From contig NC_135260.1 of assembly GCF_964204865.1 (NCBI RefSeq), positions 20,646,001 through 20,710,000 on the forward strand: a stretch of DNA of 64,000 nucleotides, read 5' to 3'. Every line of letters begins with the position of its first letter. Within the stretch, counting starts at the first letter, position 1. This DNA is from Styela clava (Eukaryota). Below are positions 10,001-50,300 of this stretch, piece by piece. Both the position numbers and the translations under genes were made by a program. The notes under the pieces were generated by a model that did not search any database, was not told where the DNA came from, and worked only from the letters and a program-made list of their open reading frames with translations.

Positions 10001-13000
10001 AAGGCGTCGCCGGGAAATTAATACCACATATCAAACGCGCGATATAACGGCGGAGAGAAATCGCCCAATAAAGCAAGGCAGCGTAGCGGTTGCGCCCACA
10101 GAAAAACAAAGAAACGATAAAAGCGTCTGCCCAGCGGTTGAACCACTGGTCTAGCTTAGTGCCGAACCTTGCCCAGAACCACGTTTTAGTGACAATCGAA
10201 AGTGAGTTTTGCTGAAATTTGATTGGCTACCTGCGCTATTCAACGAAAGTACTTCACAGAGGCGTACTTATAAGGTGTGATGACGGGAGTTGACAATCAA
10301 AACGAAAGGAAAACATCAAAATACTAATATATATGTGAATGTGATATTCCTCTATTTCACTAATGATTTTGTATCAGTATATATGGCCATAACTTTTAAG
10401 TACGTTTTTGTATTTTTCCTTCTCGTTTTATCAATTTGAGTTAGATGTCATTTTGGTCAATATATTCAAGGGTTTAGAAGAAAATCCAGGCTATATCATT
10501 AAATGAATATGTTGTTAACAGATGGCGTTTTGCATGTGCAAATCGACAAAGAGGTTATGGAAAATCACGAGACAGCTATACCTTTTGAATGGCTGAAGGA
10601 AAACTGCAACTGTGATTCGTGTCTAAAAGCCGACATTGCTCGGAGCAACTTCAACTTTGCAAACCCTGCAACCACTTCTGTTCCAAGAGTTTGTTATGAC
10701 TCTCTACAATCTCAAGAGGGAAAGTTTGAGTAGGCGAAAAATTAAATTTGAATGGCACAATAATTGTATTGCGATTCTATTTCGACTTAATTGTTCATTT
10801 TAGATGCCTTAAGCAAATTGTTGACGTTGGTTTCTGCGTGATAGAAAATGTCACGAGGGAGAGTCTAACAGTGCTCAAGGTGAGAATTTGGTGTGAATTC
10901 AATCATAGAATATCCTTAATGTGCAATACTTTTAAATTGCGTGCGCATAAGCACGCTTTGCTAGTTTCTATTCACTTTGGGAAGGATTAGGACTTTGGGA
11001 ACTTCGGTTAGGATTAGGACCATACATCCAATTCTCCATACTGTCCTAGTTATATGTTGGCGAAAACGGGAGTTGACAAGAGCAAATTAACCAACCATTT
11101 CAGCATCATTTAGACACGCAAAGTATGCTTAGAAATTTTCATCGAACGAAAATAAACGTTTTAGGTTTTTTCGTCATCATTCTAGCATATGCAGTAAAAT
11201 CGGTAATATATTGTTGTACTTATATATATATATATATATATAGGACTTATTCAAAAATCTAAAAATTTCTGTTTGTAGGTTGGCGAAATGTTTGGTTATA
11301 TTCGATCGACTCTGTACGAAAAAGTAAGTGCAGTTGAGAAAGAATCTCGTTTTCAATATTGAGTTGTTGTAGTTGCGATTGTACAATTGCGAATTTGTTA
11401 TTTATTTTTGTTATAAATCAATGATACAATCGCCGGCGTCAATGGATTGCTATGGTTCCAAAAGCAAATACAAATTGTGACGATAATCTGAGTAAGTACA
11501 CAAAGTAGACGATCAAACTTGGCCATCCCCTAAAAGAAATTTAATTGAAATAGAAGGGGTGTGATGCTCGACGATCAGCGTGTGTTAAGGATGTTGTGAG
11601 CGTAAATATCTGCTATTTTTATTTAGTTTTTCCAATACCATATTAAAAACTTTGCAGTATTTGGATACAACAGCGCAAAATAGGATTCGGAAATGAATAT
11701 ACATACAAGTCAGCCGTAAAGCTCAGAAATCGATTTAGGCACATATCCCGACCTCTGGAACCATTAATACGATGATGCAATTTGCTTACTGTTTCGTTTT
11801 TATTTAGTTCTTTGATGTCAAGTATGAGCCGGATCCTTATAACTCGGCATATACCAGTTTGGGACTTCCCTACCATCAAGATTTACCGTACTATGAAGCA
11901 ATGCCGGGAGTCCAACTTCTTCATGCTCTTGAGTAAGATTTCCGAGTAGGCCTACAACATTTTCATCACGATACTATTTCCCTAATTTAATAATTTCATT
12001 TAAAAATTATCAGATGCGAAATTGGACAAAAAATTATTGTAGTAACATGAAATTTTGTAATCTTTATAAAAACTTAATACGCAACTACGCATGTTTTATA
12101 TATCTATTGATCTGCCCTTGTATTCGCCATGTAGCCACATACATACATACATACTTGCGCGATTGACGGCACTCCCGAAGTATGTGCATCAAGATGGCGC
12201 ACAACCTGAACCCTAATCTGGTACACATACTATGTTCAGGTTGTGCGCCATCTTTGTGCACATACTGAGCTCCCGATTGACTTAGAATGTGAATTTTGAT
12301 ATCGAATAATAATTCCAAATGGTGCCTTGTTTCACATTTACAGAATACAACAATTATCCTTATTTTATATTTCCTAAGCTGCTTTTTACTTCCAAAATAA
12401 TTTCCAGTAGTTGAAACCAGATGTCTGTGTGATGCATTAAAAGACATTTGAAGTACATATACAGCTACGAGAATTTGCCAGCTTCCGGGTTTTTATTAAC
12501 TTCTGAGCCGATACTTTGAGCAACATTTTTAAATAAATTTCTATCGTATTTGATAGCGATGAATATAACTATATATATATAAGAGATAAGATACGCAAAT
12601 TTTCGAGCATAATGTAAGTTCTATTAGGAGTGGATGAAGAGATATACTATGGCGAGAATTGCTCTTCTATTTTTGGTACAGACCCATATATACAGATAAA
12701 AGTTTCAACCGACTTTTCGTCCACACTGAAAAAAAAATATATATACATATGTTCCGTGTGTGCACTAGCATTTAGAACTTTACGTAACTATGTTCAGATT
12801 CGACGATTCAATCAAAGGTGGTGAATCACAGCTGGTAGATTTATTTCACGTGGCGGATATATTAAAAAAGGAATCTCCCGAAAACTTCAAAGTGCTATGT
12901 ACAGTTCCTGGTACGTTTCAAACAAAGGATTTGAACCGCCCCAACCCAGCTTGGTACGAGCATACAAGGACGCATATTGAAGTTGATTACTTTGGAAACG

Positions 13001-44655: not shown

Positions 44656-47346
44656 TTTATGTCTCTTAAATTGTGTAATATTATTATTTATTTATTTCTA
44701 TATTTTAATTTTATAAAATCCAATTAAAAAAAAATAATAAAAAAATAAGTCTTCGGTTGATCTCGCAAAACTAGAGCGAAGCGCATTCTAGTTCTATTTT
44801 TATGTATAGCGGGGATACCGTACTACAGAATCAGACCATGTAATGATATTGAGATCGCCACGCAAAATATAGAGTCAGGCGATAAAATATGGCAAAATGC
44901 ATATGAACGATTTCGATAAGACACCTTGGGTAATGTTCTGTGGTCGTTAATGTTAGCTTTTTACTGATACGTTGACCATATTATTCAATCCACGTTTGAC
45001 TATCGTGGTCCATATCAAATAACACAAACAAATCAATTAACACGAGCAAATCCAAAATAGCACAGTATATATAAATACCATAATATAAGCAAATATAACA
45101 GCTAATATGAATCAAAAAACAGTCAAAATTAGCACGGTGTGGTAGGCTGGTCTATTAGCGTTTCAAATTTAACAAGTAACGAATCATGATCAGGCGAATA
45201 TGCAAGAAAAATCGACGCAAATAATTGATTTCTGTTAAATCCCTTATGAAATGCGTTAATTTAAATACAGTAGTTGGAAGTCTATCGTCAAAACGAGAGA
45301 GCCTTCAATTGACCCCGTAGAAATGAGAGAGAAGTGCACTCTACGTACGTCGTACAGTAACGTTATATCTCTGTCTGTGGATATGCGCGATCCCTGCAAA
45401 TAAGAATAAGTTCTTTGTTAACCAAATCTGCCAACTAGACACTAAGGCAGACAGGGTACCTACTGCAGTAATTGAGTATTGGAGCTGTTGAAGGACCCAA
45501 ATTTCGTGAATTTATCGAGAAAGAAGAATAGAAGTCTACGGGTGCTCTAGTCAGCAATCTGGAAGCGGTACTCCCACAGGCAGACAGCGGTAAGTTTCCG
45601 ACGTGTTTACAGAAGGCTGTTTGCTAGGGCTAGGAATTTCAGGTAAAACACTTTAACCGGTTAACCTCAGCGTGACGTTTGACGTAATAATTTTAACTTT
45701 GTCACAATGGTTACAAAGCACTTTCGGGTGATCGTATTCCACTATCGCTCAAAAATATTCACTGCAAGAGATATTCAGCATGCTTCGGACATCTGGAAGT
45801 ACTGAAGTATTTTAGTAAAACCCGAATTCGTTATTACATCCCATTTCCAGATTTATGTGACAAATTTTCAGTGTTCGATGGCAAATTATACTCTGAGATA
45901 TCATAAAGAAAAACAGCATCAACTGCGCACTTGTTGGATGACATTAAATATATGATTTTGCAATAAAATCGTGAACAATATATTTCGACCGAAAACTAAA
46001 TTTATAATTGTCAAATTTTCATAATTCTGTAATCAGCAATCTTGGTACTTCAATTATTGTTCACATTTATTGGGTCCTTACCAATACAGTTCTGCAGTGA
46101 TATTCTCTTGAATTAACTGCCACAGGAGATAAATTTGCGATGACGTAATCATTTTTGAAAAAATTGTACATCATAAAGATGATTTGTACCTAAGATGTCA
46201 GTTAACGCTTAAAATAAATCATAACCGTTGTCCATCTAAAATCAGTTAACCATTACCAGTCTTTCCTAATCCAGTAATTAAGGGTGCCCAAACTGATTCC
46301 AGCGTATTAATAAAACCGGTTTCAGTGAGATGCCATTACTGCAGACCTGCGCCAAGTCAGTCCAGCAGTCAGTTTTCAGTTGCAAATTCAAGGACAATTT
46401 CAAATTCAAAGAATTTTAATTTGAAAATAGGATTCTAAAATAATGACATTTGAAGTTGAAAAAGTGTTCAGCCTTTGAGGGGCCAAACTGCAGAAAACCG
46501 ATTTAAAGGAAAGTTTTTGTAATAACTCAAATTGCACTAACACCCATCCAGCCATCATTCCTGTATTTTTCAATTTCATCTTCGACGAGGATGATGAATC
46601 TTTCGCTGATACAGTGATAGCATTGTAACTTTCCAGCTTTTCGTTAAGTCAGGATTGTTTTTGTCACATGATTCACATAAAATTCAATGCTGTAAGAATT
46701 ATGGCAATATTTACGCCAGAACTGAAATTTCTGCAAAGCTATATATTACTGGTCTATTTGCTGATCACTGAATGATAGATAGATCTGTAGATAGTTTATT
46801 TTCAAAACTCTCTTCTCTTTACATCTTGCTGTCTTGTGAATGTTTCTGTTTCATACTGCAGTCAAACTTGATCATCAGTGACTGTCAACCTCAAAATCAA
46901 TTTCCCATCACAGTGTCTGTATTAATAGTGTATCTTACATATACATTATTATATCCGACATAATACTCATTACTCAATTTACATAATACAACCAAAGACT
47001 CAACTACAACCAAATGAATATGCCTAAATGATCTATCAGTATCTATTTCCCCTAACACTGCAAACACCTAGCCCTAAATGTCCTATAAATCTAGATGTAT
47101 TTAGGATTTTCATATTTATTCCGGTGTTGAAGCCGATAACACGGCCTAATCATTTGGCCTACCGCAGCATCTCGTTTGGTTACCATCCTAATATGACGAA
47201 CTAAAGAATCATTCCTTATTTCAGGATTCAGAAATTGGTCGTTGGAAGTCAATGACAGAATACATCTCACATTTTTTGCTTTACAAATACAGCAATCTCA
47301 ATCACAAGCAAGTTGGTAAGCCTTCATCCATTGTACCAATTTGAAA

Positions 47347-50300
47347 ATGTCTGCTCAAGCTCAAATGAAAGATCTTTTGGATCAGTTGATGGGGACACAA
47401 CGAGATGGTGAGAAAATTTCTATTGTTACATAGTACATTTTAAAACGTTTTGTTCTTGTTTTTTGTTTCAATATTGATGGTGTTTCATTTTTAACCTTTT
47501 CATGTCAAGGTGACTTATACATTTACGACATACTATGTCAACAACGCGGAGAAATTAAATGAAAGAATAGCTTGCAGCTGCCGTGAGTGCAAAATGTTCA
47601 TAAATTAGAGCGACTGTGTATTGTTTTATTTAAAATATACCATATATATATGAATGATCTATTATATATTTTTTGCGATCACTCCATTTTTTCTCAAGTA
47701 TGATATGTTCAGTCAAGTCAAATTCATCAGTCAAATTAGCAATTGGTAGTTACATACCAAGGACCAAATAAAGTTGTCTGCTCATATTTTCGATACTATT
47801 ACAAGACAGTTTTCTTGACTTATAGATAGTGAGTATTTTTTTATTTTAACTAACTCGAGCAACAGAAACTACAGTACAAAGTAAGGATTGGGTAAGTTGT
47901 ATCTTTACAAGAAATGATCCTGGCAGCACACTCGGATTTTCATCTAATAGAAGAAATTGATACTGAGATCCGTGTGTATGTTTAAGCTTGTTTTCAAACT
48001 TTCTTGTGTCCTCTCTGTCAATTATTTTGTTTACAGACTTATATTTTTATCATGTCAGTTTTGGATAAATTTGATTTAAGTTGAAGTTTATCAATTTATT
48101 GTCCTAAACCTAAAGTAGGACAATATGGGAAGCTCTTTTGCAAAAGCAGCATTAATAACTGTTACTTCAAGACCTTTTTGTATCAATTTTAATTTTGCAG
48201 TCTACAGTCTACACATTAATAAATAAATTTAAATTGAAAGTATTGGCATTTGGTTTTCACACATTTTAAACTGATTTTAAATTTTTTCGATTATCATTAT
48301 TATCAACTTATTTATGTTCTATCAGGTGTTGACACCGGTGCAGTAAGTTTCAGAGATGATGAAGTCTGCAAAACATTTCTTCTAGGATGTTGTCCCCATG
48401 AAATTTTATCTGGAACGGTATGATCTAATGATAATTATTGGTACTGTAATATATGTGATTATTTTGCATGTTGCAAAGTAGATCTCTATTAAGACGGTAA
48501 AGGTTGCATAGACATAGACATCGGGAAAATATACCAATATTTTTGGAATTGAAAATGCTGTAACCATTTCTAAAGTTTTTAAAGAGAGTTTTTTATTTGG
48601 TTTCATTTAGACCAAATTTTGACTTTCTAATTTTTTTCTCCAGAGAGCAGATATTGGAAGTTGCAGAAAGATTCATGATCTAGCATTAAAGGCAGACTAT
48701 GAAATGGCGACGCAAAGCAAAAAATATTACTATGAATTTGATGTAAGCTTGTTTAGTTTTGTCTTTGCCAATTATTACATGTTTTCTCTTTCTTTCATTT
48801 GTTGATTATTTTGTTTTTTAGTCATTCGATCATCTGACACGATTTGTTGCTGAAACAGATCAGAAGATTGAGATATCAAAGAAGAAATTAGCTGAACAAC
48901 AGGCTGAAATAAGTGCAGAAGTAAAAGCAAAGGTTTGTTCAATTTATTTTCTGATTGATCAGTATTCATGGCATCAACAAGCTTGCTTCATTGTTAAAGT
49001 GTATTTTGAAATTAACGTGGGGACTGTTAAACAATTTTGTACGTACCTCCTATATGGTGATGGTTATTTTGTGAAGTGGTTCGTAAACTGTGATACACTT
49101 GACCAGTGGGTATCAAACTTTTTAGCGCCCCCTTTTTGGAAATTGTCAAATAACTCGCTAACAATAAGCTACAAATAACAGATAGTAAGGTTCCACGCTA
49201 AGGATAATAAATATACAAGCACAACATCGCTTTGCAATTTCTAATCCAGGGGTTCCCAAGCTTCTTTCAGGACGACCCCAAAAACAAAGTGTCCTGTGTC
49301 AATATATATTTTTTTTTATGAAACTTTAGAGCTTCTTTCACTGGACTTATGAGTTTGGTCATGTGGTGGTATTAAGTAAAATAAGCTAAATCCAAACAAT
49401 GATGTCATAATAAGCACCTACATTTTCTATAGCATAAGCATAGAGCGGATGCCAATGGGCCTGTTTTACAGTTAGCAATTTAACATGGTTTGTCAAATCT
49501 TGGATGTTTTGTACATCCATCCTCTACCATACCTCAGCGACCCCATGACCTGTTTGCGACCCTACCTATCACTCCGACCCAATTTGGGGTTGCGACCCCT
49601 GGTTTGGGAACCCCTGCTCTAAACAATAAAGATATGTAAATATCTGAAATAAGGGCGAGATCAAATCTGACAATTATTTTTAATTAGCTTCACACCTCTC
49701 AAAAAACTGTCTATATGTCCCTTGTGGGGTTTGCCCCACCATTTGCGAACCACTGCACTAGACTAACTAAAGCATTGCAAAATATCAACTCATTTTCTAA
49801 AAAATTACACCATATCTGCCAGCAATTAGAGCTTGACATTAATCAAATTCATCAATTTGCATATCATCGAAATTTGTGTAATGAAATATTTTTGTCTTTC
49901 ATCTAGGAAGCTAAAGTTCAGGAGCTCACAGATCAAATTGGTAAATTATTGGCAAAAGCTGAACAACTTGGCTCTGAAGGTGAAGTTGATGAAGCTAAGA
50001 ATGTTCTAGAAGAAGTTGAAAAAGTCAAAGATCTTAAAAGAGAAGCAGAGGTTTGTATCTCATTTTGGGTTGTTTGCTAGGATTCAAGGGTACTTCGGTG
50101 GTGAGTGTTATTACGAAATCCAGCTTTAGCAGTCCCTTGAACCCTAGCAAACAACCAAAAATCATCCCTAAACCTATATTTATTAGTCTATAATTTACAG
50201 GATGCATACAGAAATTCCATGCCAGCTTCTACTTATCAACAACAAAAGCTGAGAGTTTGTGAAGTCTGTTCTGCTTATCTTGGTTTACATGATAATGATA

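Follow-up and report, generated by a model that had tools for sequence, protein, structure and literature searches.

A hairpin-enclosed donor-like site in intron 5 and a stop-containing cassette in intron 1 of the Styela clava LUC7L gene

Coding intron 5 of the LUC7L gene of the tunicate Styela clava is mostly a hairpin whose loop contains a consensus donor-like site, and coding intron 1 of the same gene contains a cassette exon with a premature stop codon. Both were found in a 64,000-nt stretch of the genome (NC_135260.1, positions 20,646,001 to 20,710,000 of the forward strand), hereafter the window. The hairpin and its looped site are real and unique, and they are most likely silent in splicing. 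Our preferred, still tentative reading is that the hairpin cages a strong right-handed donor-like site, while feedback on the gene would run via the stop cassette in coding intron 1. The original prediction of a poison donor in intron 5 is unsupported; the RNA-supported poison event of this gene lies in coding intron 1, and the gene's self-control is likely exerted there.

The gene and the cassette in coding intron 1

The gene (47347..51642, + strand) is of the LUC7L/LUC7L2 type and has nine coding exons encoding 323 aa. Its identity as LUC7L, initially read from the sequence, was confirmed in three ways: the nine-exon model built from the window translates into exactly RefSeq isoform X2 (P0122), the protein contains a Pfam LUC7 domain (E = 7.7e-75), and the translation of coding exon 6 is 100% identical to a S. 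clava Luc7-like protein. A search of the S. clava genome revealed one other LUC7 exon match, which belongs to a LUC7L3-type gene at a separate locus; the gene in the window is therefore the single LUC7L/LUC7L2-type gene found. Because a 5′UTR exon lies upstream (Table 1), the intron at 50051-50200 is coding intron 5 but transcript intron 6. The predicted stem around the donor of the 5′UTR exon (window 45580-45630) carries in its 3′ arm a 12-nt word that it has in common with the intron-5 stem; a match of equal length occurs in 1 of 64 background stretches. Elsewhere in the gene, coding intron 4 (window 49070-49760) contains several high-copy repeats with inverted ends and intron 6 contains shorter repeat fragments, and run X6 shows three changes and three other letters in exon 3 and at the start of exon 4, respectively (48709-48712 and 48823-48825), which are probably alleles.

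Table 1. Features of the Styela clava LUC7L gene, in window coordinates
Feature	Position	Strand	Remarks
5′UTR exon	45387..45589	+	start approximate; contig X2:6 carries 202 unaligned letters ahead of 47224, the last 30 of which match the end of this exon
5′UTR-exon donor GCG/GTAAGT	45590	+	right-handed; inside a 27-nt loop closed by a predicted 10-bp stem
Coding exon 1	47225..47407	+	ATG 47347; second ATG 47405 starts the alternative frame through the cassette
Poison cassette exon, 73 nt, in coding intron 1	47510..47582	+	T-rich AAG/G acceptor; TGA 47560 in the main frame; donor GCC/GTGAGT at 47583, Balance +3
Coding exon 5	49907..50050	+	authentic donor GAG/GTTTGT at 50051, Balance 0
Coding intron 5	50051..50200	+	GT..AG, 150 nt, in frame, TAG at 50078
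Basal helix of the authentic donor	50049..50055, pairing with 50169-50175	+	predicted, 7 bp; adds at most ~1 kcal/mol to the opening cost
Hairpin 5′ arm	50062..50094	+	fold prediction; single copy
Looped donor-like site GTG/GTGAGT (cut at 50101)	50098..50106	+	weakly paired apex; Balance +2; no use seen
Hairpin 3′ arm	50131..50162	+	fold prediction; single copy
Coding exon 6	50201..50377	+	second zinc finger; 100% identity to S. clava Luc7-like protein

Splicing was assessed in six contig sets, which were taken as RNA by guess rather than by record and all of which show GT..AG joints. The joint that enters the cassette (47407->47510) is present in three of the four runs that cover the whole gene, and the contigs that carry it then read through to exon 2. 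Contigs with this joint have depths of 100, 13, and 59, compared with 471, 274, and 64 for contigs that skip the cassette; these depths are not inclusion levels. The joint from the cassette to exon 2 is absent among the joints listed, and its donor side is given by a RefSeq model: translation from ATG 47405 through the cassette equals isoform X1 (P0121), which means that the RefSeq annotation joins the cassette to exon 2. The cassette is placed between coding exons 1 and 2 and ends at a donor with a Balance of +3 (scored as defined in the accessible part of Kenny et al., PMC11842720); it is included in RNA and brings in a premature stop or, in the frame from ATG 47405, a replaced N terminus.

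We found that GTGAGT is frequent in LUC7L intron 1 of other animals as well. Across eight lineages, the sense strand of intron 1 contains 14 copies versus 2.0 expected, with 3 copies in antisense, while the other LUC7L introns contain 4 versus 4.6 expected. Each lineage is represented by one member of a near-identical group (L044, L056, and L062 were dropped as duplicates of L043), and four loci were left out of the count, namely L081 and L084 (unclear exon 1), L042 (transcript-like), and L061 (lacking exon 1). Intron 1 of the fish-like L011 is devoid of GTGAGT, and a search for an N-terminal peptide match to lamprey P0038 found none. The AAG/G...(G/T)CC/GTGAGT layout of the Styela cassette recurs in three distant loci, where it delimits candidate exons of 108, 69, and 50 nt that would introduce a stop or a frameshift; the T-rich AAG/G acceptor pattern, which was written after these sites had been seen, matches a single one among 120 background GTGAGT sites, with the Styela site itself counted in that set. 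One of the three layout-sharing contigs is bryozoan-like; an exon of L061 is 97% identical to a bryozoan protein, and L064 has no close named match. In the transcript-like L042, exon 1 is followed by an insert with a stop codon, and the sequence continues past TTG/GTGAGT into exon 2, as in the Styela contigs. We regard these patterns as signs, drawn from sequence comparison, that the intron-1 cassette may be of bilaterian age.

Two further features of intron 1 were observed in these loci. TTG/GTGAGT recurs as a second conserved donor type (L032:5244, L042:648, L043:2756, L047:1558, L054:5122, and L019:59), and GTGAGT is found in predicted hairpin loops at L064:3540-3590 (with a perfect 14-bp stem), L043:2580-2605, L054:4980-5002, and L042:640-662.

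The hairpin in coding intron 5

Folding of the 150-nt intron gave a minimum free energy of −47.1 kcal/mol (z = −6.66), and none of 200 shuffled sequences was equally stable. The core stem (50062-50090 paired with 50134-50162) contains 27 Watson-Crick pairs in 29 positions, with mismatches at G50067.A50157 and A50082.C50142, and is extended by a bulge and 3 bp (50092-94 with 50131-33), which bears out the near-perfect ~30-bp stem that had been proposed to fill most of the intron. The consensus donor reported in its loop, cut at 50101, is likewise there: its use would lengthen the exon by 50 nt, bring in the TAG at 50078 in frame, and truncate the protein to 178 aa, short of the CEVC...H..H finger encoded by the next exon (ZnF2), and the TAG precedes three later junctions. 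The authentic donor had been called weak on the intron side. Its sequence and its place in coding intron 5 were given correctly, but its Balance, scored by hand, is 0 (that of the looped site is +2), which makes it balanced rather than left-handed, and GTTTG begins three of the nine authentic donors of Styela LUC7L, so that this donor is ordinary and not unusually weak for its gene.

All six spliced contig sets contain the canonical joint 50050->50201. The joint expected from use of the looped site (50100->50201), which the original prediction would have sought in RNA-seq, is absent among the joints listed in all six, a weak negative because contigs drop rare, short, low-depth variants. In the whole-gene contig sets, the bin depths over the intron-5 region are those of the main contig alone. 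Because rare variants are lost from contigs and any NMD target would be scarce, these data show only that the canonical form dominates. Missing contig cover over intron 5 was dropped as evidence, as depth arithmetic showed coding introns 2 and 7 to be equally uncovered in X1.

The hairpin occupies one genomic locus, as determined by BLAST and four patterns, with one stray 18-mer elsewhere that lacks a hairpin. Similarly, two DNA-like runs contain no other genomic contig over 50036-50199, whereas repeats map on intron 6. Although its arms form terminal inverted repeats (27 of 29 bp) of the kind seen in MITEs and fold-back elements, a multi-copy MITE is ruled out by the single locus; control hairpins returned 41-317 candidates. 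We took as background 384 kb, made up of the window, 30 stretches of 10 kb at arbitrary positions, and 2 at the LUC7L3 locus, and found 6 hairpins of comparable grade (11 at a slightly looser setting), both counts including the intron-5 hairpin. Three of the others were searched and all proved to be repeats, with 41 to 317 candidates; six more belong, by eye, to two shared terminal-repeat types, so that 9 of the 10 others are classified in this way. These S. clava families (window 12179-12266 and 30675-30803; L087, L098, L102, L108, L113, and L118) have terminal inverted arms similar in length and quality to those of the intron-5 hairpin but exist in tens to hundreds of candidate copies rather than one. 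In the same survey, the hairpin at L090:890-1005 was seen to border a tandemly amplified array (~120 kb, contig C2). A GTGAGT hairpin near LUC7L3 was considered as a parallel device and rejected, because it lies ~6 kb upstream of the gene and is a multi-copy MITE.

The chance of a GTGAGT in a 45-nt stretch is 0.7%, and that of the motif in the loop 0.7-1.8%. Only 2 of 314 GTRAGT sites fold as stably as the intron-5 site, namely the site itself and one in a MITE, and GTGAGT is also found inside 1 of the 10 other background hairpins. The combination of a single-copy hairpin and a looped GTGAGT is unusual, albeit picked from many features scanned.

We compared these elements with 80 metagenome loci. 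The two closest, L007 and L008, are tunicate-like and intronless in the coding region and therefore cannot carry the intron-1 cassette; their open reading frames (L007:5491-6429 and L008:5343-6281, on 17-25 kb contigs) may reflect intron loss or retrocopies. Among eight distant loci that retain the intron position, none has a long hairpin in the orthologous intron 5 (best stems 16-20 of 29; z from −1.2 to +1.6 over the first 150 nt). GTGAGT occurs inside intron 5 in three of these eight, at unlike offsets and without a long stem, and the sense count over nine introns including Styela is 5 versus 1.55 expected (4 versus 1.5 without Styela), a weak excess. A pseudo-5′ splice site conserved in homologous introns, as in the ultraconserved class, was not found among the eight. 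The GTGAGT at +48 of intron 5 in L061 was rejected as a looped counterpart, being predicted to be paired in a locus whose own donor is already GTGAGT, and an introner origin of intron 5 was rejected because the intron position is common to L011, L068, and others. Nucleotide BLAST of Styela introns 0, 1, and 5 against the 80 loci gave no significant match, and the genome-contig search yielded no DNA of tunicates, its sole match being bacterial and weak.

Several features of the hairpin suggest that it may be incidental, that is, a young local inverted duplication or an orphan fold-back relic in which GTGAGT is a chance occupant, tolerated when looped out, with nothing under selection. The stem lacks G.U pairs, and the minus strand gives a slightly more stable fold (−50.8 versus −47.1), which leaves no indication that the transcribed strand has been selected. 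The divergence of the arms (2 mismatches in 29) is about that found when intron-6 alleles of different individuals are compared (10 differing letters plus 2 gaps over 238 nt), and a TCA direct repeat (50060-62 and 50162-64), of the kind that an insertion could leave behind, flanks the inverted repeat, although three bases match easily by chance. The lack of the hairpin in the eight distant orthologues and the presence of GTGAGT inside another background hairpin point in the same direction. No allelic variation was seen in the hairpin in X10 and X11, a short stretch for which X10 may be the assembly source. However, single-copy long hairpins are rare in this genome sample, the low-probability loop motif stands in a gene whose human paralogues act on that very donor class, and excising the inverted repeat with one TCA would leave an intron of 48 nt, below the 79 nt of the shortest intron in the gene. 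An incidental origin is in our judgment possible, though on the unlikely side.

We also weighed a lineage-specific intronic pre-miRNA or endo-siRNA hairpin, in which GTGAGT would again be incidental. A single copy within an expressed host gene would suit such an element, and the stem of ~33 bp comes close to the length favored by Microprocessor, but a loop of 36-43 nt with almost perfect pairing is atypical of pre-miRNAs. Furthermore, no Rfam family was found at threshold (best E 0.13, to generic hairpins), no basal UG or CNNC was seen by eye at the offsets that we take to be expected, and 8-9-mers from the arms are absent from four Halocynthia miRNA supplements, the Ciona matches being unrelated hairpins. 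Such a role is very improbable.

Predicted U1 binding and the proposed caging of the looped site

Binding energies were predicted with what we take to be the sequence of the U1 5′ end. The looped site is the best U1 match of 11 donor-like sites scored (−11.1 kcal/mol), with a predicted net binding of −6.1 kcal/mol in the fully folded intron, compared with −2.9 kcal/mol for the true donor, and of −10.4 kcal/mol before the 3′ arm exists; it is predicted to outbind the true donor at every transcript length tested. As a proxy for catalysis we used a 13-nt stretch of upstream exon, presumably in line with spliceosome structures. Freeing positions −13 to +12 at 37 °C would cost 19.2 kcal/mol at the looped site versus 8.5 kcal/mol at the true donor, and freeing from −7 instead would narrow the gap to just 8.9 versus 7.5 kcal/mol. 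Since U1 is predicted to be able to bind the loop and yet splicing there would cost ~19 versus 8.5 kcal/mol, caging of the site is likelier than its presentation; on these energies, the hairpin is predicted to permit U1 binding while hindering splicing at the looped site. The basal helix was also considered as a switch that masks the true donor and was rejected, because the predicted opening cost rises merely from 4.9 to 5.1-6.0 once the 3′ arm exists.

If the hairpin cages the site, the arms would zip 30-60 nt after the looped site has been transcribed and so loop it out, the zipped arms would bring the true donor near the 3′ end of the intron, and the canonical junction would thereby win over a site with the better match to U1. 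If it regulates at all, the looped site would then act as a U1-holding pseudo-donor or as a leak under fast elongation. By extension from the human paralogues, surplus LUC7L would favor the Balance +3 donor of the intron-1 cassette, and the products of cassette use may be NMD-targeted, intron-retaining, or N-terminally replaced. That caging was selected for is a separate matter, against which stand the missing hairpin in the eight distant orthologous introns, the strand symmetry, the near-allelic arm divergence, and the flanking TCA repeat described above; in addition, a harmful cryptic donor could be abolished at lower cost by a point change than by a hairpin.

The original prediction was that the loop presents a poison donor that senses LUC7/U1 and is used at high LUC7L/U1 activity, with the product removed by NMD. 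What holds of this proposal is that the site is right-handed (+2, versus a balanced true donor) and has the better predicted net U1 binding at all lengths tested. The predicted basal pairing of the true donor, the in-frame TAG before three later junctions, and the weak excess of GTGAGT in intron 5 also speak for it, and the predicted loops around GTGAGT in intron 1 of L064, L043, and L054 keep a structural LUC7 sensor in play. What is not supported is its use in splicing, as far as the contigs and the fold can tell: the decoy joint appears in none of the six contig sets among the joints listed, against three of four for the intron-1 event (a weak comparison, as contigs drop short low-depth bubbles), freeing the upstream exon has a high predicted cost, and the basal helix adds so little. 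Moreover, the eight distant introns lack the hairpin, and the position known from humans is already occupied in this gene by a Balance +3 cassette. We consider a presented poison donor unlikely.

A combined scheme appears similarly doubtful. In it, LUC7L would sense its own activity twice, through a bilaterian-ancestral intron-1 cassette and through a tunicate-evolved, hairpin-caged donor at which LUC7-stabilized U1 would divert intron 5 to mis-splicing or retention, followed by decay; the looped GTGAGT sites in intron 1 elsewhere would be convergent.

Significance and relation to known systems

Poison exons, studied mainly in human cells, hold the balance between LUC7L/LUC7L2 and LUC7L3, which tune two classes of 5′ splice sites. 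With its layout repeated in protostome-like contigs, a matching tunicate cassette would place the origin of this feedback in early bilaterians and make the T-rich AAG acceptor an overlooked conserved feature. The 150-nt intron 5, with two donors 50 nt apart and one stem, may serve as a compact natural reporter for asking if RNA structure can uncouple the binding of U1/LUC7 from splicing. Even as an incidental feature, the hairpin would illustrate cleanly how folding makes a strong cryptic donor harmless. In the literature, searched at the level of titles and abstracts (subscription journals and figure-only sequences, which may hold an invertebrate cassette, fell outside this scope), we found nothing on the hairpin or on a tunicate LUC7L poison exon, and the accessible part of Daniels 2021 contains nothing on autoregulation.

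The closest known system is human. According to the accessible part of Kenny et al. 2025 (PMC11842720), human LUC7L has an exon with a premature termination codon and LUC7L2 a homologous alternative second exon, AE2, with a Balance +3 donor. Their inclusion is promoted by LUC7L/LUC7L2 and repressed by LUC7L3, and right-handed donors in general are the class that LUC7L/LUC7L2 promote in human cells; NMD-linked LUC7L splicing has also been reported, in sources available in part, for non-mammalian genomes. The Styela cassette and the human exon are alike in position, Balance +3 donor, stop, and a frame that replaces the N terminus, a likeness read from position and handedness. The Styela cassette is thus likely a new member of this known system, in which LUC7 dependence would follow by analogy. 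The intron-5 hairpin, on the other hand, has no counterpart in the human LUC7L/LUC7L2 system as described in that part of the paper.

The available text on cross-regulation of U1C and U1-70K (PMC3798272) describes an alternative 3′ splice site combined with downstream cryptic donors, in a different gene and with a different sensor. In Styela intron 1, the contigs likewise show an alternative acceptor and then continue through donor-like sites (the GTGAGT at 47583 and a further copy). For intron 5, the nearest precedents in the accessible parts of their sources are the repression of an internal 5′ splice site looped out by inverted repeats (review, PMC7404189) and the paired regions that control poison exons in BRD2/BRD3 (PMC10789245). 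As in Styela, an inverted repeat surrounds a potentially unproductive splice signal; unlike in those cases, the Styela stem forms locally within a 150-nt intron, which it fills, and has one donor and no acceptor inside it. The ultraconserved pseudo-5′ splice site of ENOX1/Enox, as described in the available part of PMC13100119, binds U1 and is never spliced. The Styela site is likewise an intronic consensus donor that follows a used donor, is predicted to bind U1, and shows no junction among the joints listed, but the ENOX site is ultraconserved and LUC7-independent in Drosophila cells, whereas the Styela site is enclosed in a hairpin and was not found in the eight distant orthologues.
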